Source: Alkalilimnicola ehrlichii MLHE-1 (lineage in GTDB: Bacteria; Pseudomonadota; Gammaproteobacteria; Nitrococcales; Halorhodospiraceae). From it: 32,000 bases of DNA. A model generated the notes under the pieces. That model searched no databases. It was not told where the DNA came from and saw only the letters and a list, made by a program, of their open reading frames with translations. The stretch covers positions 690,001 through 722,000 of the forward strand of contig NC_008340.1 in the NCBI RefSeq assembly GCF_000014785.1. Reading direction: 5' to 3'. Position 1 is the first letter of the stretch. Each line of letters opens with the position of its first letter. This document shows positions 1,801-21,034 of this stretch, piece by piece. The position numbers and the translations under genes were made by a program.

Positions 1801-1805
1801 AAAAC

Positions 1806-2083: not shown

Positions 2084-2202
2084 GCTAGTGGGGGTTTCGG
2101 GGGTTTCTGGGGTTTCTCACAACGATGGGTTCAAAACTGTCAGTGACAGTTCAGACCTATAGAGCGGAACAAACCCTAGAAACCCCACAAACCCCCACTA
2201 GC
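2084..2202. repeat. 119-bp dyad-symmetric array: three GGGGTTT-type iterons on each arm around a perfect palindrome ACTGTCAGTGACAGT; candidate ori or pac/cos site
   Basis: The left arm GCTAGTGGGGGTTTCGGGGGTTTCTGGGGTTTCT (2084-2117) pairs with the right arm AAACCCTAGAAACCCCACAAACCCCCACTAGC (2171-2202) with about 3 mismatches. The central palindrome at 2136-2150 and the outer arms share the same symmetry centre (2143). Confidence 0.65.
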
Positions 2203-2369
2203 TACCGGACCCGAATATAACCCCGCGAAAATCAGGGGCAATTACCCCGGCCTACCCTCGTCATCATGCGGTTCGACTGACAATCCCTCCACAAAGCCCA
2301 TTGCCATGCGGTTCCTGTAGCGGTATCATTGTCCATATCACACCAAAACACACACCAAATGGGCAGGGC

Positions 2370-2735: not shown

Positions 2736-2971
2736 TGGTCATGTGCGCCGCCTGTAAGCACTTCCCTGGCAACGGCCAACTGTGTCCGAAGGCCAAGCGC
2801 CACGCCACGCACCACCCGCGCAAGTGTGACAAGTTCACCGGCCACCGTCTGAGCTTCGCGGTGCTGCAAGCCCGCTCCCTCGCCACGTTCGCCCGCCGCC
2901 GCCTGACCCCGGCCAGTTACCAGCGGGTATTGCGGGATGCGCACCGTCTGGCGGAAGAGGTGAGGCGATGA
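2735..2971 (+). CDS. Small Cys/His-rich hypothetical phage protein (78 aa)
   Basis: Start overlaps the previous stop (TAATG). Contains CAACKHF..C..HATHH..C, possibly metal-binding. Its stop overlaps the next start (ATGA). Confidence 0.45.
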   Translation: MVMCAACKHFPGNGQLCPKAKRHATHHPRKCDKFTGHRLSFAVLQARSLATFARRRLTPASYQRVLRDAHRLAEEVRR

Positions 2972-3342
2972 GCGCCGCCGCACTCAAGATAGAGCGCGAC
3001 GAAAACGACGTGCGCAAGGACTTCACCCCGTCCGAGAAGGTCGCCATTGCCCAGCGGATTGAGGAGGCTATGGCGGGCCGGGTTGGCAATCCCCAATTCT
3101 GCAACACGTTGCAGAATTGGCAGAAGGCCCCCAAGGGCAACTCCCGAGACATCGCCCAGCGGATTGAGGAGGCGTTGGCGGGGCGTCAGGGTCAGCGGAC
3201 AGACTTAGGCAACACGTTGCACAAGTCATCTCCGCAAGGGAAGACCCGCGACATCGCAGCCGACGCCGTGGGATGGTCTGGCGAGACCTACCGAAAAGCC
3301 AAGGCGGTGGTGGAGTCGGGAGACGGGGAGGCGATGCGATGA
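2968..3342 (+). CDS. ParB-like HTH protein lacking most of the ParB N-terminal domain, with an internal duplication
   Basis: ERDENDVRKDFTPSEKVAIAQRI resembles the ENxxR..L..E.A segment of ParB. The C-terminal GKTRDIAADAVGWSGETYRKAKAVV is HTH-like. ATGA overlaps occur at both ends. Confidence 0.55.
   Translation: MSAAALKIERDENDVRKDFTPSEKVAIAQRIEEAMAGRVGNPQFCNTLQNWQKAPKGNSRDIAQRIEEALAGRQGQRTDLGNTLHKSSPQGKTRDIAADAVGWSGETYRKAKAVVESGDGEAMR
3046..3252 (+). repeat. In-frame tandem duplication (about 105 + 102 nt) inside the ParB-like gene
   Basis: ATTGCCCAGCGGATTGAGGAGGC... (3046) recurs as ATCGCCCAGCGGATTGAGGAGGC... (3151). GCAACACGTTGCA is present in both units. The peptides are IAQRIEEAMAGRVGNPQFCNTLQNWQKAPKGNSRD and IAQRIEEALAGRQGQRTDLGNTLHKSSPQGKTRD. 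Confidence 0.7.
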
Positions 3343-4868
3343 CCAACATTGTCGAAGCCTTCACCGACCCGCAGTTGCTAGGCCAGTCGTTTGGCGAGGA
3401 TACCCGCGAGGCTTGGCGTGCTGTCCTGTCAGGCGCGTTCGCCCTGCCGATGGATGATGACCGCCTTGCCCTGTTTAAGCGGCTGTCAGGCGACCGTGAG
3501 CCGCCTCAGCGGCAGGCGCGGGAGCTATGGGCCATTGCGGGCAGGCGCAGCGATAAGACCCATACCGCAGCCGGCATTGCGGTCTACCTGGCGACCATCG
3601 GGGCGGAGCTGGACGGCACCCTGGCCCGCCTGACCGCTGGCGAGCGTGGTGTGGTTCAGTTGCTTGCGGTGGATCGCCAACAGGCCAAGGTTGCGCTTGG
3701 GTACGTTCGCGGCCTGTTCGCTGATAGCCCGGTCATGTCCAGCCTGGTGGAGAAGGAGAACACCGAGGGCGTTTTGCTCCGCAACGGCGTATCTATTGAG
3801 GTGGCCACCAACAGTCACCGGGCCGTGCGTGGGCGCACTCTGCTGGCGGCCATTCTGGACGAATGCGCCTTCTTCAAGGATGAGGCGACCGCAACCCCCG
3901 ATGTAGAGGTTTACCGCGCCCTGGTGCCTTCTCTGGCGACCACCGGGGGCATGCTTGTCGGCATTTCCAGCCCCTACGCCCGCCGGGGGCTGCTCTACAG
4001 CAAGTGGCGCAAGCACTACGGCAAGCCCGGTGATGTGCTGGTGGTGCAGGGCGGAACACTGGACTTCAACCCCACCCTTGATCCCCGCGTTATCGCGGAG
4101 GCGGAGCAGGATGACCCCGAGGCGGCCAAAGCCGAATGGCATGGGCAATTCCGTGCGGATGTTGAGGGTTTTGTAACACGCGAAGCCGTAGACGCCTGTA
4201 CCGTGCCGGCCCGGATCGAGCTACCGCCGGTGGCTGGCGAGCGGTACACGGCGTTTGTGGACCCGTCTGGCGGCTCCAAGGATGCGTTCACGCTGGCGAT
4301 CGCCCACCAGTCTGATGGTGTGGCCGTGGTCGACGCTATCCGCGCTCAGAAGCCCCCGTTCAGCCCGGAGGCGGTGGTTAAAGAGTTCGCCGGTCTGCTG
4401 AAGGAATACCGGATCAGCAAGGTGGTGGGCGACCGTTACGGCGGTGAGTTTCCGCGCGAGCTGTTCCGAAAACAGGGCATTGCCTACAAGCTATCTGATC
4501 GGCCTAAGTCTGACCTGTATCGTGACATGCTCCCGTTGCTCAATTCTGGGCGCGTGGAGTTGCTGGACAATGGCCGATTGCAAAACGAATTGACGAGCCT
4601 GGAGCGGCGCACCAGCCGCGCCGGGAAAGACTCAATAGACCACCCGCCAAATGGCACCGACGATGTGGTTAACGCGGTGGCCGGGTGTATAATTGAGGCA
4701 GCAAAACCCAAAGCCGTTCCCCGCGTGCGGCGGATGGGTGATTCGATCAGTTCCGGTTCCAATTCTGGTTCCAGCGTTCTGGATCGAATCGCGCAAGGTC
4801 AGAAAGCCAGCGGGAGGTTGGCGAGTACGCGCCGAAGTTTTCTGCGAGATGCAGACGGTTTCGGTTGA
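3339..4868 (+). CDS. Phage terminase large subunit (509 aa)
   Basis: The start ATG overlaps the upstream stop (ATGA), so the track's earlier start at 3273 is unlikely. Walker-A-like GRRSDKTHTAA and Walker-B-like LLAAILDECAF are present, and the C-terminal nuclease-like half has FVDPSGG...DAFTLAIAH and HPPNGTDDVVNAVAG. Confidence 0.85.
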   Translation: MTNIVEAFTDPQLLGQSFGEDTREAWRAVLSGAFALPMDDDRLALFKRLSGDREPPQRQARELWAIAGRRSDKTHTAAGIAVYLATIGAELDGTLARLTAGERGVVQLLAVDRQQAKVALGYVRGLFADSPVMSSLVEKENTEGVLLRNGVSIEVATNSHRAVRGRTLLAAILDECAFFKDEATATPDVEVYRALVPSLATTGGMLVGISSPYARRGLLYSKWRKHYGKPGDVLVVQGGTLDFNPTLDPRVIAEAEQDDPEAAKAEWHGQFRADVEGFVTREAVDACTVPARIELPPVAGERYTAFVDPSGGSKDAFTLAIAHQSDGVAVVDAIRAQKPPFSPEAVVKEFAGLLKEYRISKVVGDRYGGEFPRELFRKQGIAYKLSDRPKSDLYRDMLPLLNSGRVELLDNGRLQNELTSLERRTSRAGKDSIDHPPNGTDDVVNAVAGCIIEAAKPKAVPRVRRMGDSISSGSNSGSSVLDRIAQGQKASGRLASTRRSFLRDADGFG

Positions 4869-4909
4869 TTGATGAAAGCGGGTTTTCACTTCAACCGAGG
4901 TAACGAGTT

Positions 4910-6049
4910 ATGACGCATCAAGTGAAGGAAATGGTCGAGGGCGTGGCCCGAGACTTCGAGGGGTTTAAGTCCCGCCAGGATCAAGCCCTGTCCGACCTGG
5001 GCGAGCGCGTGAAGCGTGCCGAGACCCTGGCCGCCCGCAAGGTGGGCATGACCGTGGACAGCGGCGCAGGCATGGGGCCGGAGACCAAGGCGGTCCGTGA
5101 GTGGCTGCGTGGTGGCGACTTCGACCGCAAGGCCCTGAGCATCGAGGATGACGGCCAAGGCGTGACCGTGCGCAGCGATTGGGCGGATCAGATTTTCAAG
5201 CGCATTCGGGAATCCAGCCCGGTCCGGCAGGTGGCTAATAACCTGTCCACCAATTCCAACGAATTGGAGGTTCTGGTTGACCGTGGTGAACCGGACTCAG
5301 CGTGGGTGGCTGAAAAGGGCGACCGCGATCCGACTGCCGCTAGTTTCATGTCTCGGCATAAGATTGCGGTGCATGAACATTATGCGTATCCGAGCGTAAC
5401 CCAGCAATTCCTGGAGGATAGCCGGCTCGACCTGGAGCAGTGGTTGCAGGACAAGATCGGAACCCGTTTCGGTCGGCAGGAAGCCGAATCCTTTATCAAG
5501 GGTGACGGCAACGGCAAGCCTCGCGGCATTCTGGATTACGACACCGTGCCGGATGGTGATTTCGAGTGGGGCGCTGATCCTGCCGATTACACCATCGGGG
5601 CGATCTATACCGGTGAATCGGGTGACTTCCCGAGCAACAATCCCGATAACGTGCTCTACGATGTTGTGGACGCGCTCAAGTCGGATTACCTGGGCAATGC
5701 ACGGTTCATGATGAGCCGCGCCACGATGAACAAAATTCGGAAGCTGCGGGATGGTGACGACCGTGCCCTGCTCCAGATGAGCCTGGCGGAAGGTCGGCCC
5801 AACACGCTTCTTGGGTTCCCGGTGGTGATTGCCGAGGATATGCCGGACCCGGCTGCCGATTCCGAGTCGATCCTGTTCGGTGACTTCGGCCAGGCTTACA
5901 CCATCGTTGACCGGATCGGAGTAAGCGTGCTGCGTGATCCCTACTCCCTGCCCGGATGGGTCCGCTGGTATGTGCGCAAGCGGATCGGTGGGGCGCTGAC
6001 CAACCCCGAGGCCGTGAAGGCCGTGGTGTTCGGCGCTGAGCCGAGCTGA
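4910..6049 (+). CDS. Phage major capsid protein, HK97 family (379 aa)
   Basis: The product has a charged, coiled-coil-like N-terminal region of about 100 aa. This is followed by a typical HK97-fold core pattern (FGRQEAESFIKGDGNGKPRGIL, YLGNARFMMSRATMNKIRKL, ILFGDFGQAYTIVDRIGVSVLRDPYS). RBS is GAGGTAACGAGTT-ATG. Confidence 0.85.
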   Translation: MTHQVKEMVEGVARDFEGFKSRQDQALSDLGERVKRAETLAARKVGMTVDSGAGMGPETKAVREWLRGGDFDRKALSIEDDGQGVTVRSDWADQIFKRIRESSPVRQVANNLSTNSNELEVLVDRGEPDSAWVAEKGDRDPTAASFMSRHKIAVHEHYAYPSVTQQFLEDSRLDLEQWLQDKIGTRFGRQEAESFIKGDGNGKPRGILDYDTVPDGDFEWGADPADYTIGAIYTGESGDFPSNNPDNVLYDVVDALKSDYLGNARFMMSRATMNKIRKLRDGDDRALLQMSLAEGRPNTLLGFPVVIAEDMPDPAADSESILFGDFGQAYTIVDRIGVSVLRDPYSLPGWVRWYVRKRIGGALTNPEAVKAVVFGAEPS

Positions 6050-6205
6050 TGAACACCGCCCGCTCCCGAGGCGGCAATATCGGGAGAGTTCCCCCCAGCC
6101 ACCGGGGCGGCGCAGGCCGAGAGGGTGGACGCGGCAACGTCCTGGCCGTGTCTCAGAACAAGGGCGGGCGGTATGGTTCCACCGCTGCGAAGAAACGGAC
6201 CCGCG

Positions 6206-6241
6206 CCCCCCGAGCGAGATGCTGCGGGGGGCATCTTTTTG
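6206..6241 (+). terminator. Putative rho-independent terminator downstream of the capsid gene
   Basis: A 7-bp all-G/C stem CCCCCCG (6206-6212) / CGGGGGG (6225-6231) has a 12-nt loop and is followed by CATCTTTTTG. Confidence 0.5.
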
Positions 6242-6256
6242 TATGGAGGTGCAACC

Positions 6257-6538
6257 ATGCTGACAGCCGAGGAACGTCTATGGGTGGCCGCACTGGCCCG
6301 GTATGTACAGGACGCACGCGCTCCCAGTGCCTACGGTGACGAGGGCGAGGCGCTGGCGGACCTGGAGGGCGATGCCGTGATACTGCGCCGCCTGGCGGAG
6401 CTGGCGGGCTATGACCCCGAGGCCACGGTGGTGGCGGTGAGGCGGGAGGTGTTGGGTGGTCCGCCTGAACATCCACCGGCGAAACCTGTCCGCCAGCCAG
6501 AAGGCCGCCATCGCCACCGAAGCGCTTGCCATGTATGA
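6257..6538 (+). CDS. Hypothetical phage protein (93 aa, MLTAEERLWVAALARYVQ...)
   Basis: ATG at 6257 is preceded by GGAGG (6244-6248). It is the internal part of track ORF 6125..6538. No family recognised, and the 3' end overlaps the next ORF in another frame. Confidence 0.4.
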   Translation: MLTAEERLWVAALARYVQDARAPSAYGDEGEALADLEGDAVILRRLAELAGYDPEATVVAVRREVLGGPPEHPPAKPVRQPEGRHRHRSACHV

Positions 6539-6830
6539 GGCGGAGGCGAAGGAGAGGCAGCGGGAGAGCGGAAGGTTTGCGGGTAAGGATGCTGAAGGGA
6601 ACCCGGTTGTTCAGGTTCCGGAAATCTTGCCGGAACCTGAATCCGCACCAACGGCCAACAGCGAACGTGCGGCGGTAGCTGATGAGCCCACGGAACAGCC
6701 CAAGCCGTCCCGCTACGAGCAAGAATCCCGCGCCAAGGCCGCCGCAGACTTCGGCACCAATCCGCGCTATGTGTCGGATGCGAAGCGGCCTGAGAACAAC
6801 GCGGCCACCATCTCCAGGTTGTCGAGATAG
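6456..6830 (+). CDS. Second ParB-like HTH-only ORF, possibly a truncated remnant
   Basis: LNIHRRNLSASQKAAIATEAL and ESRAKAAADFGTNPRYVSDAKR match the post-N-domain and HTH parts of ParB-like proteins. The frame only opens at 6441 (TGA at 6438-6440), so the N-terminal ParB/Srx domain is absent. The tail overlaps a convergent small ORF. Confidence 0.4.
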   Translation: MVRLNIHRRNLSASQKAAIATEALAMYEAEAKERQRESGRFAGKDAEGNPVVQVPEILPEPESAPTANSERAAVADEPTEQPKPSRYEQESRAKAAADFGTNPRYVSDAKRPENNAATISRLSR

Positions 6831-6916
6831 CGCTGATAGTCTGCGCGGGCTTGCTCGGTATCCGGGTTGTATCCGTAGTGCTGGCACCAGCGGACGAAGT
6901 CGGTGGGATTGTTCAT
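6767..6916 (-). CDS. Small hypothetical protein (49 aa, MNNPTDFVRWCQHYGYNPDTEQARADYQRYLDNLEMVAALFSGRFASDT); not in the ORF track
   Basis: Found by hand translation of the minus strand. ATG at 6916-6914 is preceded by AGGAG with a 7-nt spacer. It is the only minus-strand ORF in the phage block, and its 3' 64 nt overlap the end of 6456..6830. Confidence 0.35.
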   Translation of the reverse strand: MNNPTDFVRWCQHYGYNPDTEQARADYQRYLDNLEMVAALFSGRFASDT

Positions 6917-6959
6917 GGCCTTGCTCCTATTCGTAGTGGATGAACAGGGAAGGCGGAGT

Positions 6960-7026
6960 ATCAGGCGCTTTCAGGTTGGATGGCCGGGTGGTGTGATGCC
7001 CGTTTTTCCGTCTGTAAGCGCCTGAT
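6960..7026. repeat. Perfect 11-bp inverted repeat between the phage block and the tRNA 3' end
   Basis: ATCAGGCGCTT (6960-6970) pairs with AAGCGCCTGAT (7016-7026) across a 45-nt spacer. On the plus strand the right arm is followed by TTTTC. Confidence 0.5.
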
Positions 7027-7039
7027 TTTCCTAGGTAGG

Positions 7040-7115
7040 TGGTGGAGCCGAGGGGAGTCGAACCCCTGACCTCAGCAGTGCGATTGCTGCGCTCTCCCAA
7101 CTGAGCTACGGCCCC
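7040..7115 (-). tRNA. tRNA-Ala (anticodon CGC), 76 nt with encoded CCA
   Basis: The reverse complement reads GGGGCCGTAGCTCAGTTGGGAGAGCGCAGCAATCGCACTGCTGAGGTCAGGGGTTCGACTCCCCTCGGCTCCACCA. The 7-bp acceptor stem has G3:U70, the alanine identity pair. The D stem is GCTC/GAGC. The anticodon stem CAGCA/TGCTG carries loop AUCGCAC. The T arm is AGGGG-TTCGACT-CCCCT. Confidence 0.93.
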
Positions 7116-7260
7116 GGTGCAGCGCAAATCCTACCACCGCTGGCGTTAAGATAAAAGGGCGCCCATATGGGTGCGGCCGAATCGCGCCAGTAGCGCGGGG
7201 CGCGGCCCGTGCGCCGGTCGTGTTCGGCGTCCTCGTGAGCCTCGGACTGTGGTGCGGGCA

Positions 7261-8394
7261 TCATGGATGCATACGCACCTTTTGAAGTTTGCAGGATCTG
7301 CCGGCGGCGAGCAGCTCGGGGAGTTTGATGTCGGGGTCTTGCTCGCCGGCCTGCACCATGCGCCGGGCGGCGGCCTCCAGTTCGGGGCTGGGCGTGGCCC
7401 AGTCGTGCTCCGGGATGGGTTCGGACCAGGCCTGGATCTCGGGGGGAATGGGTGCGCGGCTCTGGTGGTATTCCCAGGTGGCCAGCCGGAAGGGCAGCTT
7501 CCAGAAGGTGATCAGGTGGTAGAGGTACCAGAAGAAGACGAAGACCCGGCTGGTGAAGCCATCACGAAGGTCTTCGTGGAGTTTCTTGCGGGCGATCTCG
7601 AGGGTGTGGACGCCGTCGTAGGGGAGGTGCTCCCTGGGGTCGATGGGCAAGCCGGAGAAGGTTTTCGTGGGCCGTTCGAGCGTGCCCGGCCCGTGATCCA
7701 TGTAGCGGCGGATGGCCTCCCACAGGCCCAGGGCCTCCTCGGGGAGCGAGGCGGGGAAGAGGGCGGTATAGGACTGTCCGGTTTCCGCGTCCTCGACGGT
7801 GAGGCCGAAGTTGTAGTGGGTCATGGCGCCGTAGGGGGTGGCGCCGCTGCTGGTGGCCATCCAGGCGGTGACGCGCTCGAACGGGGCGACGAGGGTTTGG
7901 CCGGTTTCGGGGTCGAAGCAGGCGACCTCCCGGCGCTGGCGATGGAAGCGCACCGGGGGATGCCGCCGGGCCTGCTTCATGCGGTCGACGAAGCCGTAGA
8001 GGAGGATCAGAAACAACAGGGTGCCGCCGAAAAGGCCGTAGGGGATGGAGACTATGGCGGCATAGAGGGCATTTGCCCAGAATGGTTCGCCATACACGAG
8101 TCCGGCCGCGCCGATAAGCATCGGTGCACCGAGCCCGATAAAGATCACGCCGATGAAGAAGGGCATGCCGATCATGACCTGGTGGGCTTGGGCGGTGTGG
8201 CGGCTGGAGTCCAGATCCAGGTAGGTCTGGTCGATGTGGACGAGGAACTGCTTCGGGTCCATGGGGCGCACCGGGAGCGGTAATGGCAGCGGCGCGAGGA
8301 CCAGCGCCTCGCCGGTGGCGAAGCGGCGCACGTCCCCGGCCCGGGGATGTCCGGAGAGGTCGGGGGCTTCGTTGGTGGGGGCGGGCTTGCTCAT
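7261..8394 (-). CDS. T6SS immunity-like inner-membrane protein, distal paralogue (377 aa)
   Basis: Start ATG overlaps the stop of the upstream paralogue (ATGA at 8391-8394). Two hydrophobic helices (MIGMPFFIGVIFIGLGAPMLIGAAGL and ALYAAIVSIPYGLFGGTLLFLILLYGF) plus a third hydrophobic stretch (RVFVFFWYLYHLITFW). Immunity function is inferred from position downstream of a membrane toxin. Confidence 0.75.
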   Translation of the reverse strand: MSKPAPTNEAPDLSGHPRAGDVRRFATGEALVLAPLPLPLPVRPMDPKQFLVHIDQTYLDLDSSRHTAQAHQVMIGMPFFIGVIFIGLGAPMLIGAAGLVYGEPFWANALYAAIVSIPYGLFGGTLLFLILLYGFVDRMKQARRHPPVRFHRQRREVACFDPETGQTLVAPFERVTAWMATSSGATPYGAMTHYNFGLTVEDAETGQSYTALFPASLPEEALGLWEAIRRYMDHGPGTLERPTKTFSGLPIDPREHLPYDGVHTLEIARKKLHEDLRDGFTSRVFVFFWYLYHLITFWKLPFRLATWEYHQSRAPIPPEIQAWSEPIPEHDWATPSPELEAAARRMVQAGEQDPDIKLPELLAAGRSCKLQKVRMHP

Positions 8395-9566
8395 GGTTTC
8401 CGTGGGGTCCGCTCGTTGTTGCCGTTGCCGTTGCCGTTGCCGCCGTCGTGGTCCGGGTGCCAGTCGGCGATGCCGGCGGCGAGCAGCTCGGGGAGTTTGA
8501 TGTCGGGGGCTTGCTCGCCGGCCTGCACCATGCGCCGGGCGGCGGCCTCCAGTTCGGGGCTGGGCGTGGCCCAGTCGTGCTCCGGGATGGGTTCGGACCA
8601 GGCCTGGATCTCGGGGGGAATGGGCGCGCGGCTCCGGTGGTATTCCCAGGTGGCCAGCCGGAAGGGCAGCTTCCAGAAGGTGATCAGGTGGTAGAGGTAC
8701 CAGAAGAAGACGAAGACCCGGCTGGTGAAGCCATCACGAAGGTCTTCGTGGAGTTTCTTGCGGGCGATCTCGAGGGTGTGGACGCCGTCGTAGGGGAGGT
8801 GCTCCCTGGGGTCGATGGGCAAGCCGGAGAAGGTTTTCGTGGGCCGTTCGAGCGTGCCCGGCCCGTGATCCATGTAGCGGCGGATGGCCTCCCACAGGCC
8901 CAGGGCCTCCTCGGGGAGCGAGGCGGGGAAGAGGGCGGTATAGGACTGTCCGGTTTCCGCGTCCTCGACGGTGAGGCCGAAGTTGTAGTGGGTCATGGCG
9001 CCGTAGGGGGTGGCGCCGCTGCTGGTGGCCATCCAGGCGGTGACGCGCTCGAACGGGGCGACGAGGGTCTGGCCGGTGTCGGGGTCGAAGCAGGCGACCT
9101 CCCGGCGCTGGCGATGGAAGCGCACCGGCGGATGCCGCCGGGCCTGCTTCATGCGGTGGAAAAAGCCGTGGAGGGCAATGAGAAACAACAGGGTGCCGCC
9201 GAAAAGGCCGTAGGGGATGGAGACAATGGCGGCATGCAGGGCGCTTGCCCAAAAGGTGTGGTCGGTCCCGAACGCGGTCGTGCCAATAAGCAACGGAAAA
9301 CCGAGCCCGATAAAGATCACGCCGATGAAGAAGGGCACGCCGATCATGACCTGGTGGGCTTGGGCGGTGTGGCGGCTGGAGTCCAGATCCAGGTAGGTCT
9401 GGTCGATGTGGACGAGGAACTGCTTCGGGTCCATGGGGCGCACCGGGAGCGGTAATGGCAGCGGCGCGAGGACCAGCGCCTCGCCGGTGGCGAAGCGGCG
9501 CACGTCCCCGGCCCGGGGGTGTCCGGAGAGGTCGGGGGCTTCGTTGGTGGGGGCGGGCTTGCTCAT
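8391..9566 (-). CDS. T6SS immunity-like inner-membrane protein, proximal paralogue (391 aa)
   Basis: The true start is MSKPAPTNEA at 9566, overlapping the toxin stop (ATGA at 9563-9566). The track's 586-aa version is an upstream extension over the toxin 3' end. Topology matches 7261..8394, but the tail is different (…IADWHPDHDGGNGNGNGNNERTPRKP). Confidence 0.75.
   Translation of the reverse strand: MSKPAPTNEAPDLSGHPRAGDVRRFATGEALVLAPLPLPLPVRPMDPKQFLVHIDQTYLDLDSSRHTAQAHQVMIGVPFFIGVIFIGLGFPLLIGTTAFGTDHTFWASALHAAIVSIPYGLFGGTLLFLIALHGFFHRMKQARRHPPVRFHRQRREVACFDPDTGQTLVAPFERVTAWMATSSGATPYGAMTHYNFGLTVEDAETGQSYTALFPASLPEEALGLWEAIRRYMDHGPGTLERPTKTFSGLPIDPREHLPYDGVHTLEIARKKLHEDLRDGFTSRVFVFFWYLYHLITFWKLPFRLATWEYHRSRAPIPPEIQAWSEPIPEHDWATPSPELEAAARRMVQAGEQAPDIKLPELLAAGIADWHPDHDGGNGNGNGNNERTPRKP
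8418..8441 (-). repeat. Hexanucleotide repeat (GTTGCC x4 on +, GGCAAC x4 on -) encoding (Gly-Asn)4 in the proximal paralogue tail
   Basis: Read directly as GTTGCCGTTGCCGTTGCCGTTGCC. It is in frame with 8391..9566. Confidence 0.85.
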
Positions 9567-12500
9567 GGTTTCTTCCCGGGTTGCAAGGGCACGGTCGGTG
9601 GGCTGCCGGTGGTCCACGCCCGCCCGGACAAGGGTTGGATGGGGCGTTCGGCCGAGCCGTCCTCTCGTCCGCCGGACAGGGCCTGGAAAAAGGTGGGCAC
9701 CGGGTCGGGGTTGAGGGTGTCCAGGTGGAAGTGGACCTCCCGCTCCAGGCCGGGGACCAACGCGGAGGGGTAGGTCAGGCGCAGGGAGAGGCCGGTCTGG
9801 GCGTTGAGTTCTTCCGGAAACAGCGGCAGGCGCAGGGTCGTGGGCGCGTCGGGCGATGCTTCGAGCTGCTCGGCGAGCGACTGGCTCCAGGGGGCCCACC
9901 ACTGGTCGGGGGCCTTGCGCAGGGCGGCCAGCCGCGCGGCACCGGCGGCGAGATCCTCCGGGGCCAGGTCCGGGATCACCAGTTCCAGTTCCGCCTGCCC
10001 GTCCACCCGGCGCAGGGTGAGCCGGGGTTCGACGAGGGCATTCACCCAGCGGCGCCGGTGGGTCTCCAGATCCAGCCCCGCATCGGCCACCCCCCAGGCG
10101 CTCTGCTCCAGCCAGGTGGCCAGCGCGTCGCGCTGGTTGCGGCGGTACCACCAGAGGCCGCCGAGATAGACGGGGGTGAAGAGCAGGCCGAGGAGGTTGA
10201 CGCGCACGAAGATGGCGACGAAGCGGGCGCTGCGGGTGGCCCAGGCGGCGGCGCTGAGTCCGCCCTCCTGGTAGGCGGAGACCACTAACGTGGTATTCCG
10301 CCAGAAGCCCCAGCCCTGGGTGGCGGTCAGCCCGCCGGACCCGGCCAGGGTGAGGGTGGCGGCGGCCAGGGCCTGGCCATCGCCCCGTTGCAGGGCGTCG
10401 CCCCAGCGGTGGAGGCTGCGGCCGGTCTCCGAGAGCGAAGCAAGAAAGCCCAGGCCGTACGCCCCGGTGCCCAGGTGCCCGGTGAGCCAGCCGAGGCGGG
10501 CGGCCACCGCGCCCCGGGCCATCTGGCTGCGCACCCGGGGTAGCTGCACCGCGAGCAGGCTGATGCCGATGCCCTGGGCGGCGGCGAAGGTGGGGGCCGC
10601 GGCATTGACTAAACCGCCAAGTACTGCCAACAGGTCGCGCAGGCCCCTTTGCTCTTTGTCGCGAAACTCGACGTACGCACTCCCCAGATTGCGCAACTGC
10701 AGCACCGCGATCACCACGGAAAGCCCGTCGCTGCGGAGCACGCGGCCGGCGTCGGCGCGGGTTTGCAGGGGGCGGCCGGCCCGGGCGTCGTCGGCCATGC
10801 GGCGGATCTCCCGGTGGGTGTCGGCGTCCAGCCCCCGCAACTGCAGGCCCACGCGGTTGTCCGTCCCCTTCAGGGGGTTGATGGCGCCGGCCAGGCGCCG
10901 TTCCACGTAAAGCAACTGACCGCGAATGCGCTCGCGGTATTGCTGCATATCCCGCCGGGTTTCCCGGTAGACCCTGGCGTCGATGACGCCCCGGCGGCGG
11001 CGTACCCCTTCGTCCTTCAGGCGGCGGTTCGCGCCGCGTAGCGCCTCGCGGAGGGCGAGGGCCTGGTCCACGTCGGCGTTGAAGCGCCGCACGTGGCGTT
11101 CCGTGGGCAGCTCGACGCTGGCGCCGTGTTCGGCGAACCCCCGCACCATGTCCAGCCAGGCGGCGCCGGGCACGCGGCGCAAGATGTCGTCGAGGTCGAG
11201 GTTGCCGCCGGCCTGGAATCGTTGCAGCGTTTCGTCCAGGGCCTGGGCGAAACGCAGTTCGCGGGCCGGCCGGAAGGTGGCACGGCGCAGCTCATCCAGC
11301 CCCATCGCCGTCTGCCCGAGCTCCCGGGCGGCGGGCAGGGCGTAGGTCTCCCGGATGGCCTGAAGCCGGAGCGCCAGTTGATGGAAGCTTTCGACGGTCT
11401 CGGGCGCCTGCAGGGTGCCGGCGGTTACGTAGGTCACCTGCGCGAGTTCTTCCAGCTCCCGGGCGGCCCGGCGCTGGTCGCCCGGGTGGAGCGTGTGGAA
11501 CAGCGGTTCGTTCCACTGGGGGTGGGCGTCGAGCCAGTCGGCGATGGACTCGGCGGCCTCGTCGGTGCGGCAGATGTCCCGCAGGCAGGCATACTCGGTG
11601 TACAGGGCCTGCTGGAGCTGGTCGTCGAGTGCGGGGTCGAAGTACCAGGCCGCCTCGTGGAAGTGGTTGGTCTCGACCAGGCGGACCCGGTCCTCGGTGA
11701 TGCGATCGAGCAGCGCGTGCCAGCGCCGCAGGTGCGCCCGGTGGGTGTCGAGGAAGTCGCCCATGGCGTCCCGCTCGACAAGCTCGAGCAGCCCCCTGGA
11801 GCCGAGCCCGGCACCCTGCAGCCGCGCCCGGAGGGCGTCGCGCTGCTCGTCGATCAGGTGCTGGTGGCGTTCCCGGAGCTCGGGGCCCAGGGTGTCCATC
11901 ATCTGCTGGCGGGCCTGGGCCACGCGGCGGTGGGCGGGCTCGGCGAACGGGTTGATGGCTTCGAGCAAGCCCTCGCCGCTGCCGAAGGCCCGCCGGGTCG
12001 ATGCCAGGAACCCGCCGGATTCGTGTTCCAGGCTGTTGAGGTAGTCGAGGATGGCGCGCTGCTGTGCTTCGCTGGTCTCCTCGCGCAACGCCCGGAAGCG
12101 GGGGTCATCCACAAAGCCCTCCTCGTCGAGCAGGAAGAGGGATTCGATGAACCCGCCGGCCACGTACCGGGTCTCGTGCTCTCGCGCCCAGCTATCCAGC
12201 CACCCGACCACGTGGTCCTGGTAATCGGCGAGCTCCTGGAGCAGGCCCAGGTCGTCGCGCAGTATCAGGCCGTACAGGCGCTCGTCCGGGACACCCTCCG
12301 GCGCCCAGTGCCCGAGCAGGTCGTCCAGCGTGGTGCGTTCGAAGGGTGCGGGGGGCGGCCCGGCGGGAAAGGCCGCCCCGTCTGTGTCCGAACCGCCTCC
12401 CCCGCCCGATTCGGCCGCCTTTGCCTCGGGTGGCGGCGGTGGCGGGGCCGTCCAGGGGTAGGGGTTTCGTTCCGCCTCCATGGGGCTCTCCGGCGTGCCG

Positions 12501-13240
12501 CTCGCGGGTGGCTCGTGCAGCTCCGCCACGGCCGGGCGGATCCGGTCGCTGGCGAGCAGCGGCTCCACGCTGGTCGGGTCGTCTCCGTCGAAGCCGGCAG
12601 CCGCCCGCGCCAGATCCACGGACTGCATGCGGCGGTTGCGCTCGCCCGGGTTCTCCAGCATGCGGTTGCATCGGGCGGCGCTCCACTGGGCCGTGGCATA
12701 GGCGGCCTGGAGACGAGCGGCGGAGCCGAAGGTGAGATGGGGCGCGCCCTGCGCCTTTTCGCGCCGGTCTTCGGTCACGCCCTCGACCCCATCGAGCAGC
12801 CGGGTCAGGGTCATCGCCTGCAGCCGGAATTCGTACAGCCGGAGTGGCTGCTCGCCGGGAGCGCGCGGTTGCTCGATCACGTAGAGGTACCCCTCCCGCG
12901 CAAGGCGCACGCCGATCGGCCGCGTGCCAAGCGGCGGATAGGGCGCCCGGATCCGGGCGCCGGCGATCGCCTCGGGTTCCACCAGGGCGTAGCGCAAGGG
13001 CAGCAGGGTGATCTGCTCGACCGCCACCTCGCACGGTGCGGGGTGGCAGACGTCGCCCGGTGCCCGGCTGTCCGAAAGGCGCTCGCGGTTCTCCGGAAGC
13101 CGAACCTGCTGCCCGGGGTAAATGCAGTCAGGGTGTTCGATGTCGGGGTTCAGGGTCATCAGGGTTGCCGGGGGCACGCCATGCTGCCGGGCAATGCCCC
13201 AGAGGGTGTCGCCGTCGCGTACGGTGTGTATGGCACTCAT
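9563..13240 (-). CDS. T6SS effector: N-terminal LysM + VasX / BTH_I2691-family-like N-region + C-terminal multi-helix membrane-insertion region (1225 aa)
   Basis: Start MSAIHTVRDGDTLWGIARQHGVPPATLMTLNP...GQQVRLP is a LysM domain, and its ATG overlaps the DUF4123 stop (ATGA at 13237-13240). C-x4-C then ITLLPLRYALV...REGYLYVIE matches the VasX N-terminal pattern. Residues about 838-1032 carry five hydrophobic, Gly/Ala-rich helices. The 212-aa upstream extension in the track overlaps the adaptor gene and is rejected. Confidence 0.8.
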   Translation of the reverse strand: MSAIHTVRDGDTLWGIARQHGVPPATLMTLNPDIEHPDCIYPGQQVRLPENRERLSDSRAPGDVCHPAPCEVAVEQITLLPLRYALVEPEAIAGARIRAPYPPLGTRPIGVRLAREGYLYVIEQPRAPGEQPLRLYEFRLQAMTLTRLLDGVEGVTEDRREKAQGAPHLTFGSAARLQAAYATAQWSAARCNRMLENPGERNRRMQSVDLARAAAGFDGDDPTSVEPLLASDRIRPAVAELHEPPASGTPESPMEAERNPYPWTAPPPPPPEAKAAESGGGGGSDTDGAAFPAGPPPAPFERTTLDDLLGHWAPEGVPDERLYGLILRDDLGLLQELADYQDHVVGWLDSWAREHETRYVAGGFIESLFLLDEEGFVDDPRFRALREETSEAQQRAILDYLNSLEHESGGFLASTRRAFGSGEGLLEAINPFAEPAHRRVAQARQQMMDTLGPELRERHQHLIDEQRDALRARLQGAGLGSRGLLELVERDAMGDFLDTHRAHLRRWHALLDRITEDRVRLVETNHFHEAAWYFDPALDDQLQQALYTEYACLRDICRTDEAAESIADWLDAHPQWNEPLFHTLHPGDQRRAARELEELAQVTYVTAGTLQAPETVESFHQLALRLQAIRETYALPAARELGQTAMGLDELRRATFRPARELRFAQALDETLQRFQAGGNLDLDDILRRVPGAAWLDMVRGFAEHGASVELPTERHVRRFNADVDQALALREALRGANRRLKDEGVRRRRGVIDARVYRETRRDMQQYRERIRGQLLYVERRLAGAINPLKGTDNRVGLQLRGLDADTHREIRRMADDARAGRPLQTRADAGRVLRSDGLSVVIAVLQLRNLGSAYVEFRDKEQRGLRDLLAVLGGLVNAAAPTFAAAQGIGISLLAVQLPRVRSQMARGAVAARLGWLTGHLGTGAYGLGFLASLSETGRSLHRWGDALQRGDGQALAAATLTLAGSGGLTATQGWGFWRNTTLVVSAYQEGGLSAAAWATRSARFVAIFVRVNLLGLLFTPVYLGGLWWYRRNQRDALATWLEQSAWGVADAGLDLETHRRRWVNALVEPRLTLRRVDGQAELELVIPDLAPEDLAAGAARLAALRKAPDQWWAPWSQSLAEQLEASPDAPTTLRLPLFPEELNAQTGLSLRLTYPSALVPGLEREVHFHLDTLNPDPVPTFFQALSGGREDGSAERPIQPLSGRAWTTGSPPTVPLQPGKKP

Positions 13241-14028
13241 CGGGCGCCCCCCAGAACCAGTCGCTCGAGCGTACGGATTCGCTTCCCGGACGGTTGCCCG
13301 ACGTCCAGGAGTACGGCGAGACAGTCCTTTTCTTCCAGCCGGGCTTCGTGGGCCGCCACGAGCGCGACGAAACGGGCTATCTCGGGCTCGTCGTGAAAGC
13401 GGTAGCGCTGCGCGCGCTCGATCAGCCGCGCGCAGCGGTGCTGGCCGCCCGGCTGGCCGGCCAGACCCGAAGCCCGGGCCACAGCCACCCGGAACAGCCA
13501 ACAGGCCTGGGCCCGTAGGTGAGTCATGTGGGCCTCGCTTAGCTGGAACCAGCCTTCGTCGCGCGGGCCGCGTGCCTGGCCCTGGGATGGCGCGCGGATG
13601 GTGATGTCGGTGCCGGGCAGGTGCCAGGCGGTGATCGGCCCACTGAAGGCACGGCGCTCTTCGTAGTCGAGCATGCAGAGCAATGGGACGAGCTGCCCGG
13701 GCGAATAGAAGCGACAGTAGGCGCCCTGCCCGGAAGGCAGTCGCACGCTGATCAGGCTGCGCAGGTGGTCGGCCACCACGGCCGGATCGGCCGGGGATTC
13801 GAGCAGGATGCCGTGATCCCGCCAGGTTTCCGGGGTGGCCAGGAGCGCGCTGCCGGGCGAGGGTTTGACCAGGCAAGGGCTCACGGTGATCGCCTCCTGG
13901 TGCCGGGTGCCAGCAAAGAGTCGCTCGAGTTCGGGGGCGTCATCGTGCTGGTAGGCGAGCCTGGGAGCGTCCGTGGTGGCACCGTCGAGCAGGATCAGAC
14001 CGTTTTCCGGGGTGCGGGTGATAGCCAT
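13237..14028 (-). CDS. DUF4123-family T6SS adaptor/chaperone (263 aa)
   Basis: LILLDGATTDAPRL near the N-terminus and AYCRFYSPGQLVPLLCMLDYEERRAFSGPITAW match the DUF4123 signature (LLDGA ... RFYDPRVL ... FGPI.W). It lies between vgrG and the effector, as vasW does in Vibrio cholerae. Start chosen at MAITRT (14028), 14 nt after the vgrG stop; the track start at 14124 would overlap vgrG by about 80 nt. Confidence 0.8.
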   Translation of the reverse strand: MAITRTPENGLILLDGATTDAPRLAYQHDDAPELERLFAGTRHQEAITVSPCLVKPSPGSALLATPETWRDHGILLESPADPAVVADHLRSLISVRLPSGQGAYCRFYSPGQLVPLLCMLDYEERRAFSGPITAWHLPGTDITIRAPSQGQARGPRDEGWFQLSEAHMTHLRAQACWLFRVAVARASGLAGQPGGQHRCARLIERAQRYRFHDEPEIARFVALVAAHEARLEEKDCLAVLLDVGQPSGKRIRTLERLVLGGAR

Positions 14029-14042
14029 ATCGGCGAGCTCAT

Positions 14043-16226
14043 TCAGGCGTGATCCGGGTCGTCCTGACCCGTCGGGCACGGGCAATCGGCGAGCGGGCAG
14101 TCGCCGTTCGGGCCCCGGTGGCATTGCACCACCAAGGCGGCATCTTGCCCGGCCGCCTGACGCAGCTGGTCGGGTGCCAGCGTTCGTGCGTCGAGCAAGG
14201 CCTCCGGTCCAGCACCGGCCTCGCCGTATTGAACCTCCGGGACGGCGTGGCCCGGCAACAACGGCACCGCTGCCTGCTGGGCGCTCCCGGAGCCTGGTCG
14301 GCCCCCGGAGTTCATGCGGATGCCGGGGCCACTGAGGGTGATGCCGGAGGGGTCGAGCTTGATGAAACTGCCGCCCGCCTGGAGGGTGATCTCGGCACCG
14401 GCGTCGAGAACGACCTTGTTGCCCGCGCTGTAATGGACCTCGCGGCCCGTTTCAACGAGTTGAGAGGTGCCGAAGCGCTGATGCAGCGTGCCCTCCACGG
14501 TGAGATGCTGATCACCGGCAGTGCGCTCGCGCCGCTCGCCCTGCACGGTGAGGTGCTCGTCGCCGTGGATCTCCGCGAGCCGGTCGCCGTGGACGCCCAG
14601 GTGGCTGTGCCGGCCGATGGTCTCGGAGCGGTCGTTGCGGGTGTGCAGGTCGAGATCGCGCTGGGCGTGCAGGTGGATGCGCTCGGCGTCGCGGGCGTCC
14701 TCGAAGTGCAGTTCGTTGTAGCCCTCGCCGCCGTGGCTGCGACTGCGCAGCACGCTGCGGGTCTTGTGCTCGGGCAGCGGATAGGGCGGGGTGTTGTGGC
14801 CCTCGTAGACCCGGCCGGTGATCACCGGCTGATCCGGGTCGCCGGCCAGGAAGTCGACGATCACCGCATGGCCCACCCGGGGCAGGAACAGCCCGCCGTA
14901 GCCGGGCCCGGCCCAGGGCTGGGCGACGCGCAGCCAGGCGCTGGCGTGCTCGTCGTCGGCGGCGTAGCGGTCCCAGGGGAAACGGACCTTGACCCGGCCG
15001 TGCTCATCGCAGTGGATCGCCTCCCCCTCGGGGCCCACCACCCGGGCGATCTGCGGGCCTTCCATCCGCGGGCCGGCGTCCGGGTCGTGGGGCGGGCGCC
15101 AGTCGGTGTCGGCGGGCACAAGGGTGAGCCGGTTGTTCAGCCGGGCCACGCCTGCGGCTGCATCGCCCTTGCCCTCGGCGGCCAGCAGCACGGCGTCCTC
15201 TTCCAGCGCGGCGGGCTGGCGGGCGGTGTGGCGGGCGCCGACCACCTGCCAGTCGCGGCGCCGTTCGCCGGCGTCGTGGCCATCGAGGGTGAAGCGCACG
15301 CCGGGGCGCAGCTCGGCAATATCGCTCTCGGCCTCGGCGGTGTGGGCGTCGGCGCGCAACTGGCCGAGCCGGACCCGGGTGAAGGCCCGGCCGCTGGTCT
15401 CGGTCTTAAACCGGCCGGGGTGGTCGTAGTGCTCGTAGGGGGTGGCCCCCGACTCGGCGCCATCATGCCCGGCTGCCCCGTCCACCGCCTGCGCGTGGAT
15501 CAGCCGCCGCCGGGGGGTGCGGAAATGGCGATCCTCCAGGGTGGCGCGCTGCGCGCGCACCCGGTGGGCCTCGCGCAGGGTGTGCACATGACGGCCCTCG
15601 GCTACGCCGCCGGCGCGGGGGCGGTAGACCCATTCGCCCGCCTGCCCCAACCCCCGATGGGTATCGGTGAACACCGGGCGGTGGCCGCCCTCGGGGGTGT
15701 CGTCGAACTCGTGGAAGTAGACGATGCCCAACTCGGCGGCAAGCCGCTGGACAAAGGCCAGGTCGCTCTCCCGGTACTGCACCAGGTACTCGCGGGGCTC
15801 GGGGCGGTGGCGGACGGCGAAGGCGGCGTCGGTGATGCCATGTTCCGAAAGCAGGGTGTGGAGGACATCCAGCGGGCAGGCGTGCTGGAAGATGCGGGCG
15901 TTGCGGCGCAGGGCAAGGCGCCAGAGGGCGGGGCGGACGACCAGTTGGTAGGCGGTGCGCCGGGCGCCGGTGCGGCCGCGCTGGAACTCGGTGACCACGC
16001 CGTGGACCCGGCGGGTGACGCGGCCGGCCTGATGGATGGCCAGTGCCAGGCCCTGCTCAAGCCAGTCGTCGGGGGCGAGATCGGGCGAGGGGTGGACCAG
16101 GTCCAGGGTCAGGGTGAAGGGCCGGGAGAGGTGCTCATCCAGGGTGAACCCGGTGACCCGGGGCAGGTCGGCCTCCGCCACGCCGGGGCGCGAGAGGGCG
16201 AGGTACAGTCCGTTGTCCGTTTGCAT
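14043..16226 (-). CDS. vgrG: Type VI secretion spike protein VgrG (727 aa) with a short Cys-rich C-terminal tail
   Basis: The N-terminus (RVTGFTLDEHLSRPFTLTLDL) is typical of the gp27-like domain. The gp5-like OB and beta-helix region follows (PRMEGPQIARVVGPEGEAIHCDEHGRVKVRFPWDR; WLRVAQPWAGPGYGGLFLPRVGHAVIVDFLAGDPDQPVITGRVYEG). Repetitive H-x-x-V motifs and ITLSGPGIRMN occur near the end. Confidence 0.9.
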   Translation of the reverse strand: MQTDNGLYLALSRPGVAEADLPRVTGFTLDEHLSRPFTLTLDLVHPSPDLAPDDWLEQGLALAIHQAGRVTRRVHGVVTEFQRGRTGARRTAYQLVVRPALWRLALRRNARIFQHACPLDVLHTLLSEHGITDAAFAVRHRPEPREYLVQYRESDLAFVQRLAAELGIVYFHEFDDTPEGGHRPVFTDTHRGLGQAGEWVYRPRAGGVAEGRHVHTLREAHRVRAQRATLEDRHFRTPRRRLIHAQAVDGAAGHDGAESGATPYEHYDHPGRFKTETSGRAFTRVRLGQLRADAHTAEAESDIAELRPGVRFTLDGHDAGERRRDWQVVGARHTARQPAALEEDAVLLAAEGKGDAAAGVARLNNRLTLVPADTDWRPPHDPDAGPRMEGPQIARVVGPEGEAIHCDEHGRVKVRFPWDRYAADDEHASAWLRVAQPWAGPGYGGLFLPRVGHAVIVDFLAGDPDQPVITGRVYEGHNTPPYPLPEHKTRSVLRSRSHGGEGYNELHFEDARDAERIHLHAQRDLDLHTRNDRSETIGRHSHLGVHGDRLAEIHGDEHLTVQGERRERTAGDQHLTVEGTLHQRFGTSQLVETGREVHYSAGNKVVLDAGAEITLQAGGSFIKLDPSGITLSGPGIRMNSGGRPGSGSAQQAAVPLLPGHAVPEVQYGEAGAGPEALLDARTLAPDQLRQAAGQDAALVVQCHRGPNGDCPLADCPCPTGQDDPDHA

Positions 16227-16262
16227 GGCCAGTCCGTTGGCATGGGGAATCCGTAGTCGATT

Positions 16263-16292
16263 AGCCTAGGAGGGTGCCTTTTGGCTTGTCAA
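16263..16292 (-). promoter_or_regulatory. Candidate sigma-70 promoter for the vgrG module
   Basis: On the minus strand there is a perfect -35 TTGACA (16292-16287), an 18-nt spacer and TAGGCT (16268-16263). This lies about 35-65 nt upstream of the vgrG ATG, in the 153-nt gap after the efflux operon. Motif match only. Confidence 0.35.
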
Positions 16293-16379
16293 GGCATCGA
16301 CCGTCCGGGTGGTTTCCGCTGCATGGGCGGCGTGCCTGGCTGCCCGGAGGGCCGGTGTACGGCCCGGCGATCCACCGGA

Positions 16380-17950
16380 TCAGCGCCCCATGGCCTGAAT
16401 GCCGCGCCGCTCCAGCAGGGAGCCGTCCAGACGGTAAAGCTCGACCAGGGCCTGGCGGTAGCCGATTTCAGCGGCCTGTCGGTCCACCTGGGCCTGTAGC
16501 AGGTCGCGTTGCGCCTGCGAGAGGGCGAAAGCGGTGGCCTGGCCCACCTCAAAGCGGGCGCTCTCGGCCCGCAGGCGCTCCTCCTGGGCGGCAACGGTGG
16601 CCATGGTGGCTGCGATCTGCGCCTGGCTGCGGTCGACCTCCAGCCAGGCGGCCTGCACGTCCATCTGCACTAGGCGGGTCAGGTTGTCGATGCCGAGCAG
16701 GGCCTGTTCCCGTTGTAACCCGGCCTGGCGGTGTTCGGCCTGACCGGCCCGGCGGCCCAGGGGGTGTTCCACCCGAAGGCCTGCCACGGCGTCATAGCTG
16801 CGGCCGTCCAGTTCCTGCACCGCTGAACCGAAGGAGTCGGCAAAGCCGCTCTTGCCCAGGGTGACGAAAAGATCCAGCCGCGGCAGCAGGCCGTTGCGGG
16901 TGCGCACCAGCTCCAGCTCATTGCGCTCCAGAAGCAGCCGGGCCTCGCGCAGTTCGGCCCGGTGCTCCAGGGCGAGCAGCAGGTGGTTGGCCACCGGCTC
17001 CGGCTCGGTGTCCCCGGGCAGCGCGGGGGCGGTCTCCGGGGTCAGCTCCGGGGCCTCGCCCGGGGCGTAGTCGGTCCCGGTCAGTTGCAGTAGCTCCAGT
17101 CGCGCCAGGTCGCGCCGGTTGCGGGCGTCGATCAATTCCTGCCGGCGGAGCGCGGCCTCCGCCTCCAGCGGGGCCAGTTCGGTCTCCGACAGGTCCCCCA
17201 GCCGGATCCGTTCCCGTGTGCGCTCGATCTGTTCCCCGGCCAGCGCCAGCGAGGCTTCGAACAACCCGATCTCGCGTTCCGCCTGCACCAAGTCCCAGTA
17301 GGTGCTCTCCACGTCGGCGATCAGGGCCTCGGTAAAGCCACGCAGTTCGTACGCCGAGCGCAGGGTGTCGAGCTCGGCCTGCTGGACGCGCACGAGGTTC
17401 ACGTCGCGGCCGCGGCCCTGCAGCAGGGGCTGGTTGAGGGTGAGGTTGAGCCGGGAGCGGTGCAGGGCGGTGCCGTCCCGGGCATCTGGGGCGTCGCTCT
17501 CGCTTAGCCGCCGGTCCTGGGTGACGCCCAGTTCCACCTCGGTGCCGGGGGCGAACTGCTGGCGGACGCCGGCGCGCACGTTTTCGCGCTCGCTCTCCAC
17601 GGCAAAGCGGTCGCCGCGGCGGTCATCCAGGCGGTCCTCCCGGTCGCGGCGCACGCTCAGCTCGGCGAAGAGCTCCGGGTCGAAGACCGCCCGCTCGATC
17701 TCCTGGAAGGTGGCGGCGATCTCCGGCTCCAGGCGCTCGGAGCGCAGTGCGGGGTTGGATTCCAGGGCGCGCAGGACCGCCTCCTCCAGGGTGAGGGGCT
17801 CGGCCTGTACGCCGCTGGCGAGCAGCGCCGCCAGGACGGCCAGAAGGCCGGTGCGCAACGGCCCCCACCGGCGCCGGGGCCGGTTCACGGGGGCGCCCGG
17901 GCGGGCCGGTGCAACGAGCGGGCCGGGGTGGCCCGGGTGGCGATCCTGGG

Positions 17951-17954
<4 letters not shown>
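16380..17954 (-). CDS. TolC-family outer-membrane efflux factor (524 aa)
   Basis: A signal-like LLAVLAALLASGVQA is followed by PLTLEEAVLRALESNPAL, and two repeated coiled-coil halves are typical of OEP/TolC proteins. The start overlaps the RND stop (ATGA at 17951-17954). Confidence 0.85.

Positions 17955-21030
<3,076 letters not shown>

Positions 21031-21034
<4 letters not shown>

Follow-up and report, generated by a model that had tools for sequence, protein, structure and literature searches.

A predicted orphan type VI secretion cargo operon with a VasX/Ptx2-type toxin and a mosaic immunity-like gene pair in Alkalilimnicola ehrlichii MLHE-1

Gene content of the cassette

We analysed a stretch of 32,000 nucleotides (nt) from Alkalilimnicola ehrlichii MLHE-1 (contig NC_008340.1, positions 690,001 to 722,000; the window, in whose coordinates all positions are given). 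Our subject is a minus-strand block at 7261-16226, a putative cargo cassette of a type VI secretion system (T6SS), which comprises vgrG, a DUF4123 adaptor gene, a toxin gene and two immunity-like paralogues. All five open reading frames (ORFs) are intact, and the cassette genes are identical in two assemblies of the genome. A preliminary description, made from the DNA letters alone, had given this order of spike, adaptor, LysM/VasX-like toxin and two paralogues, with coordinates that proved correct, and every family assignment it proposed passed the profile tests (Pfam/NCBIfam cut-offs for VgrG, DUF4123, LysM and VasX_N). The adaptor gene follows vgrG after 14 nt and overlaps the toxin start, and the coordinates give overlaps of 4 nt each at the adaptor/toxin, toxin/paralogue 2 and paralogue 2/paralogue 1 junctions. 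With this spacing, the block looks like a single translationally coupled operon. Its features are as follows.

14043..16226, minus strand: vgrG (TssI) spike gene, 727 residues; gp27/gp5 body and divergent tail from about residue 580 with a four-cysteine motif
13237..14028, minus strand: DUF4123/Tap-type adaptor gene (tap), 263 residues from an ATG also used by NCBI; PF13503
9563..13240, minus strand: toxin gene of the VasX/Ptx2/BTH_I2691 family, 1225 residues; LysM, MIX, scaffold, transmembrane domain (TMD) and C-terminal domain (CTD)
13094..13228, minus strand: LysM domain, toxin residues 5-49; PF01476
12605..13033, minus strand: MIX/VasX_N domain, toxin residues 70-212; PF20249, predicted Tap-binding module
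10163..10726, minus strand: putative transmembrane (pore-forming) region, hydrophobic and Gly/Ala-rich, toxin residues about 839-1026; from hydropathy and Ptx2 alignment
8391..9566, minus strand: immunity-like paralogue 2 (toxin-proximal), 391 residues; two transmembrane helices, then a large domain, probably cytoplasmic
7261..8394, minus strand: immunity-like paralogue 1 (distal), 377 residues; C-terminal tail differs from that of paralogue 2

The spike protein scored 544.6 bits against TIGR03361 (NCBIfam cut-off 186.35) and carries the Pfam domains Phage_GPD (265.4 bits), Phage_base_V (60.5) and Gp5_trimer_C (83.5). Aligned with a VgrG of another A. ehrlichii strain, it is 88% identical overall: the two are near-identical up to about residue 580 and divergent thereafter. 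In that other strain, the DUF4123 protein encoded downstream is unrelated and the effector is different, making this a paralogous island. That is, the modular logic of spike loading is visible here, with a shared VgrG body, a divergent tail and another adaptor and effector. The tail ends in the four-cysteine motif QCHRGPNGDCPLADCPC (residues about 700-720, window 14043-14130). Of 120 related VgrGs, 47, mostly from Halomonadaceae, show a corresponding pattern, C-x(2-12)-C-x(2-6)-C-x-C, within their final 45 residues, even in tails that are otherwise unrelated; two tail cysteines, in several cases as CxxC, were found in a further 52 of the 120. At this adaptor-binding end of the spike, the motif may bind a metal or form a disulfide knot. 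The nearest VgrG from elsewhere (72% identity) belongs to a Thioalkalivibrio module that was uninformative for the cargo: its toxin has no significant similarity to the MLHE-1 toxin (best BLAST E = 2.1), and its immunity gene is at best remotely related.

The adaptor matches PF13503 with 91.8 bits (cut-off 25.8) and a solved DUF4123 chain, PDB 9r8g_B (E = 5.8e-5). The toxin matches with 100% identity a protein of Alkalilimnicola ehrlichii MLHE-1 that NCBI names 'toxin VasX'. Its LysM domain (49.6 bits, cut-off 20.9) is a complete match to profile positions 1-43 of 43 and also matches the LysM structures 4uz2 and 7r1l (E about 1e-7), while the VasX_N (MIX) domain scored 87.1 bits against a cut-off of 27. 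Within the translation, LLPLRY, AREGYLYVI and YATAQWS are stretches which we take to be candidate MIX motifs. Against Ptx2 (PDB 9qpv_A), toxin residues 47-1077 align with residues 31-1023 of the chain (E = 4.9e-89), and hydropathy peaks at residues 870-900 and 1008-1026 lie within or beside the toxin stretch aligned to the Ptx2 TMD (residues 817-962). A word-indexed search returned at least three homologues of the toxin and at least five of the immunity-like proteins.

A HMMER profile search widened the immunity-like family to 479 cluster representatives at E <= 0.001. Among its full-length members, 40 of 53 match DUF6708 (PF20455) at E <= 0.01 (best 8e-11), and the two paralogues therefore appear to be a divergent branch or a sister group of DUF6708. 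Homologues stand directly after a vgrG-DUF4123-VasX_N toxin block in Alkalispirillum mobile (three in tandem), in Vreelandella sp. (three) and in Pseudomonas zhanjiangensis (one, with hcp upstream), so that the position downstream of VasX_N toxins is kept in four genera, often with tandem arrays. The LysM-VasX_N toxin of A. mobile and its immunity proteins are each about 70% identical to those of MLHE-1, and by these alignments the module appears to be conserved between the two organisms. The P. zhanjiangensis toxin was also considered as a link between Pti2, the immunity protein of Ptx2, and DUF6708; as it is no close relative of Ptx2, it was unusable for this.

Across the immunity-like family, two transmembrane helices are conserved, and an invariant and very basic motif, PPVRFxRQRRE, comes after them. 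This suggests a cytoplasmic location for both termini and for the large domain, with only the tip of the hairpin in the periplasm. A possible third transmembrane helix at about residues 285-305 was rejected, since the family-wide median hydropathy there is about 0.8. An AlphaFold2 model of the proximal protein, of mediocre quality (predicted local distance difference test score, pLDDT, 67), consists of a long helical hairpin, a beta-rich domain formed by N-terminal and post-transmembrane strands, and helices. In a Foldseek search of this model, no PDB structure reached an E value below 0.15, and no PDB sequence match was found for the protein. Resemblances to PTB/PH-like folds and to Kir channels were among the weak Foldseek matches and were not relied on.

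Proposed function and its alternatives

Functional work on relatives provides a frame for the cassette. Acting from the periplasm, Ptx2 dissipates the membrane potential, an activity that depends on external Na+ and is lost at pH 5. The soluble toxin keeps its hydrophobic domain hidden inside a helical scaffold and uses its MIX domain to bind the adaptor Tap6 (bioRxiv 10.1101/2025.04.30.651342). Tke5 of Pseudomonas putida forms ion-selective pores and depolarises cells without gross lysis; it is neutralised by the inner-membrane protein Tki5, by a mechanism still to be elucidated (PMC13133200). We therefore read the MLHE-1 block as an intact and probably functional auxiliary ('orphan') T6SS cargo operon that would provide a spike, an adaptor, a VasX/Ptx2-type depolarising toxin and membrane immunity. 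We put the probability of this reading at about 0.85; the functional data behind the mechanism come from the relatives.

By analogy with Tap6 and Tap3, Tap would bind both the MIX domain of the toxin and the variable C-terminal tail of VgrG and so load the toxin on the spike, and a T6SS encoded about 0.7 Mb away would deliver it to a neighbouring cell's periplasm. There, the hydrophobic domain would leave its helical scaffold and enter the inner membrane from the periplasmic side. The inserted toxin would act as an ion-conducting channel, the membrane potential would collapse, and inner-membrane immunity proteins would neutralise incoming toxin in sister cells. Going one step further, the N-terminal LysM domain might tether the toxin to the peptidoglycan of the target periplasm, and the second immunity copy might guard against a different allelic class of competitors' toxin. 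A. ehrlichii lives at about pH 10 and high Na+. As most of the proton motive force at high pH consists of membrane potential, a Na+-dependent depolarising toxin would suit such a soda-lake organism. If the MLHE-1 toxin behaves as Ptx2 does, being Na+-dependent and acid-inactive, it would meet near-ideal conditions in a soda lake, and MLHE-1 would be a reasonable system in which to study the ecological logic of potential-dissipating toxins.

The apparatus itself is encoded elsewhere. The preliminary description had reported no hcp, PAAR or T6SS core genes nearby, and we found none among the larger ORFs that we scanned in the whole window. A T6SS core, whose absence from the genome would have counted against the preliminary description, is nevertheless on record: the supplement of Boyer et al. 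2009 lists one locus in MLHE-1, CP000453A, at about 42-66 kb, with COGs for TssB, C, E, F, G, J, K, L and M, Fha and a sigma-54 activator, and also with Hcp (Mlg_0058) and PAAR (Mlg_0059). As the cassette lies at about 0.78-0.80 Mb in the identical second assembly, about 0.7 Mb from this core locus, 'orphan' is an accurate term.

Several findings weigh against our reading, and the first of them concern delivery. ClpV (COG0542) and TssA (COG3515) are unlisted for CP000453A, and the locus's own vgrG is listed only as a 320-residue C-terminal fragment, Mlg_0043 (Boyer et al. 2009); the apparatus could thus be impaired. Expression is a second concern. The gap of 153 nt upstream of vgrG contains the perfect TTGACA noted in the preliminary description:

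16286..16291, minus strand: TTGACA hexamer, candidate -35 element in the 153-nt gap upstream of vgrG, read directly from the sequence

A promoter there would rest on this lone hexamer. The best candidate for a -10 element, TAGGCT at a spacing of 18 nt, is poor, a promoter scan of 6900-16500 called no sigma-70-like site, and no sigma-54-like match was found within the 153-nt gap. The resistance-nodulation-division (RND) efflux operon at 16380-22260 (OEP, AcrB-type and MFP genes) is on the same strand as the cassette and ends at 16380, and transcription of the cassette by read-through from it is possible.

Taken together, the missing ClpV and TssA entries, the truncated cluster vgrG and the lack of a recognisable promoter upstream of vgrG would fit a silent relic, in which the T6SS no longer fires and the toxin stays undelivered. 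We consider this unlikely. The five ORFs are intact, tightly packed and identical in two assemblies, and Alkalispirillum shares the whole module, at about 70% identity for the toxin and likewise for the immunity proteins. Moreover, the two core-locus genes without a COG match, Mlg_0055 and Mlg_0056, might include a divergent TssA, and the full-length VgrG of the window could itself supply the spike. No other MLHE-1 VgrG was found among the 120 best matches to the window VgrG; the cluster-linked spike may be truncated, in which case the genome may have no intact spike gene other than the window vgrG, and any T6SS activity would then depend on the 'auxiliary' operon. As a separate observation, Mlg_0043 is followed by genes of 299, 1099 and 443 residues, an arrangement that resembles the island of another A. 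ehrlichii strain (vgrG, DUF4123, a 1095-residue effector and a Sel1 array).

Further points on the same side concern family membership and topology. The toxin scored 116.8 bits against NCBIfam BTH_I2691 (NF041559), below the cut-off of 150, with a match that spans residues 77-1062. Against PF20455, the distal immunity-like protein reached 16.7 bits (gathering score 27; E = 0.0066), and the proximal one gave no match. The bulk of each paralogue is probably cytoplasmic, as judged from the positive-inside rule and the mediocre model. Such a topology would be difficult to square with the AlphaFold3-based idea that a beta-sheet of Pti2 binds the sensor region of the toxin (bioRxiv 10.1101/2025.04.30.651342), provided that Pti2 belongs to the same family and its sheet is periplasmic.

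With their bulk predicted to be cytoplasmic, no relative in the PDB and scores below the DUF6708 cut-off, the two downstream proteins could instead be accessory factors, that is, membrane-anchored chaperones or co-effectors that act on the toxin in the cytoplasm of the producer. This explanation seems improbable to us: the location directly after the toxin gene and the variable copy number (one to three, and 13 in Stenotrophomonas rhizophila) are typical of immunity genes, and the characterised immunity proteins of the VasX family are inner-membrane proteins as well (PMC13133200). Position, family and literature thus support a putative immunity role of the paralogues, with function read across from relatives.

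The LysM domain, which binds peptidoglycan, raises a last alternative, in which the toxin mainly targets the cell wall or, given that VasX was first described as required to kill Dictyostelium (PMC13133200), eukaryotic grazers rather than bacterial inner membranes. But Pfam and NCBIfam searches found no hydrolase domain in the toxin, the homology to Ptx2 extends over both scaffold and TMD, and the membrane immunity genes point to an antibacterial role. Of the alternatives that we weighed, we give this one the least credit and regard it as very improbable.

Hairpin mosaic and surroundings of the cassette

The two immunity-like genes derive from a tandem duplication of 1102 bp with 96.3% identity (9572-8471 versus 8400-7299). 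Mismatches between the copies are concentrated: 33 of 41 fall inside a patch of 142 nt, which bears out the preliminary description of a duplicated, locally diversified immunity gene. At the protein level, 18 of the 21 substitutions among residues 1-365 lie in residues 75-137 (binomial p = 1.4e-11), which form a hairpin of the first transmembrane helix, a loop and the second transmembrane helix. The corresponding segments are these:

9156..9344, minus strand: divergent hairpin cassette of paralogue 2, codons 75-137
7984..8172, minus strand: divergent hairpin cassette of paralogue 1, codons 75-137

The two A. ehrlichii copies share 82% DNA identity in the hairpin codons and 99-100% in the rest of codons 1-365. 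Synonymous differences are enriched in the patch as well (7 of 63 codons, versus 4 of 302 outside it). Divergence at both the amino acid and the synonymous level, next to a near-identical remainder, suggests that the patch is old or imported and that the remainder has been homogenised. Comparison between the two genera gave a different profile, with 75-81% DNA identity in the hairpin and 78-84% in the rest, except for a patch at codons 241-292 (62-79%). In Alkalispirillum, and again in Vreelandella, the differences that separate copy 1 from copy 2 are likewise concentrated in the hairpin. The hairpin of the proximal A. ehrlichii protein has 79% amino acid identity to copy 2 of Alkalispirillum mobile, versus 71% to its own neighbour.

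Exchange seems to extend beyond the hairpin. In the A. mobile immunity array (locus positions 5066-8531), codons 241-292 form a second mosaic patch, in which copy 3 has 87% identity to those of A. ehrlichii and only about 62% to its own neighbours; this points to segmental exchange between immunity alleles. The ends of the genes differ too. The C-terminal tail of the proximal copy encodes GNGNGNGNN from a GGCAAC-type hexanucleotide repeat (8401-8470) just before the duplication junction, whereas the distal copy ends in an unrelated tail of 12 residues. Since all three Alkalispirillum copies retain the longer tail, the last A. ehrlichii copy seems to lack its native 3' end.

Divergence of the hairpin within one genome as great as that between genera suggests that the hairpin sets the specificity of immunity. 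Tentatively, the periplasm-facing tip would then be the specificity determinant of DUF6708-type immunity, with gene conversion acting elsewhere in the gene; the hairpins would be old allelic classes shared by Alkalilimnicola and Alkalispirillum, and arrays would combine cognate immunity with immunity to rival alleles. Transmembrane segments evolve fast in general, so we offer hairpin specificity as a hypothesis, possible but with the odds somewhat against it. The A. mobile and MLHE-1 toxins diverge most at about residues 841-880, the junction of scaffold and TMD, with residues 261-300 and the C-terminal tail as further divergent stretches; this pattern is compatible with co-variation of toxin and immunity, though a comparison of only two toxins does not amount to evidence for it. 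If the hairpin proposal is true, the toxin would be recognised within or at the surface of the membrane and not via the soluble beta-sheet domain of the AlphaFold3 models, and hairpin specificity would offer a handle on the mechanism of immunity. In any case, a pair of immunity-like genes that differ almost only in 63 hairpin codons is a natural chimera for mapping that mechanism.

The cassette is placed, as the preliminary description had it, between the RND efflux operon and a tRNA gene that forms the boundary of the island:

7040..7115, minus strand: tRNA-Ala(cgc), island boundary and attachment point of the adjoining phage-like element

On the far side of the tRNA gene (window 1-7039), we found genes for a DUF3987 helicase/primase-like protein, a ParB-like nuclease, a large terminase and an HK97-type major head protein. 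Sequence identity to CP183314.1, the second assembly, stops at 7040, the 3' end of tRNA-Ala, and the element is absent there; the two genomes are otherwise 100% identical and differ in length by 11,613 bp. The exact boundary and the absence from CP183314.1 suggest a satellite-like element of about 11.6 kb that encodes a capsid and can be excised. That is, phage-like genes do adjoin the tRNA, but what had been called a phage remnant is rather an insertion from the tRNA-Ala 3' end that may be excisable. GC content is high throughout the window (0.57-0.74). At the window edge, an ORF of 409 residues without a Pfam match (30750-31979, minus strand) adjoins genes for cation transporters (TrkH, a P-type ATPase and a Na+/H+ exchanger).

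Comparison with known systems

The design of the cassette has already been described in other bacteria and changes no concept: it is one more VasX/Ptx2-type effector module, here in a soda-lake arsenite oxidiser. The preliminary description had considered the family little characterised outside VasX, a view that is out of date, as Tke5/Tki5, Ptx2/Pti2 (cryo-EM structure 9qpv) and Bte2/Bti2 have been studied. It had also presented the LysM fusion and the multiplied immunity gene as novelties. However, LysM plus BTH_I2691 is listed as an existing architecture (PMC13133200), and poly-immunity arrays of DUF6708 proteins are known from S. rhizophila, where immunity to the MIX-III/BTH_I2691 toxin Tse3 is assigned to such a protein and 12 homologous copies follow. 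The hairpin mosaic is the only feature that goes beyond the literature we found on this toxin-immunity family.

Auxiliary cluster 2 of Vibrio cholerae (hcp-2, vgrG-2, vasW, vasX, tsiV2) shares the layout of vgrG, DUF4123 gene, VasX_N-MIX pore toxin and membrane immunity (PMC13133200). The preliminary description had rightly seen the MLHE-1 order as a mirror of it, and a table in the same source matches in layout, with a likeness that lies in gene order and domain families and not in measured sequence similarity to VasX. Unlike the Vibrio cluster, the MLHE-1 operon has no hcp (hcp and PAAR are in the main cluster) and no sigma-54 signature upstream, and it has an added LysM domain and two immunity copies. 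In S. rhizophila, vgrG3-tap3-tse3-tsi3a and 12 tsi3 homologues combine, as in MLHE-1, a MIX and BTH_I2691 toxin with DUF6708 immunity and a tandem poly-immunity cluster. MLHE-1 differs in having only two copies, which fall below the DUF6708 gathering score, and the S. rhizophila cluster lies inside the main T6SS region. Tke5-Tki5/Tap3 of P. putida (K3-T6SS) likewise belongs to the BTH_I2691 family and pairs a depolarising, ion-selective pore with neutralisation in the inner membrane, but it is encoded inside its T6SS cluster, without LysM and with a single immunity gene.

Finally, the Ptx2-Pti2/Tap6/VgrG6 system of Pseudomonas aeruginosa PA14 (H2-T6SS) has the same order of vgrG, DUF4123 adaptor, MIX-scaffold-TMD-CTD toxin and immunity gene, and its toxin aligns with that of MLHE-1 over about 1000 residues, so that Tap-dependent loading via MIX and the VgrG tail would be expected here too. 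The MLHE-1 toxin differs from Ptx2 by an additional LysM domain at its N-terminus and by a Pro/Gly-rich insert that follows MIX; MLHE-1 also has two immunity copies, and its operon lies far from the core T6SS cluster.

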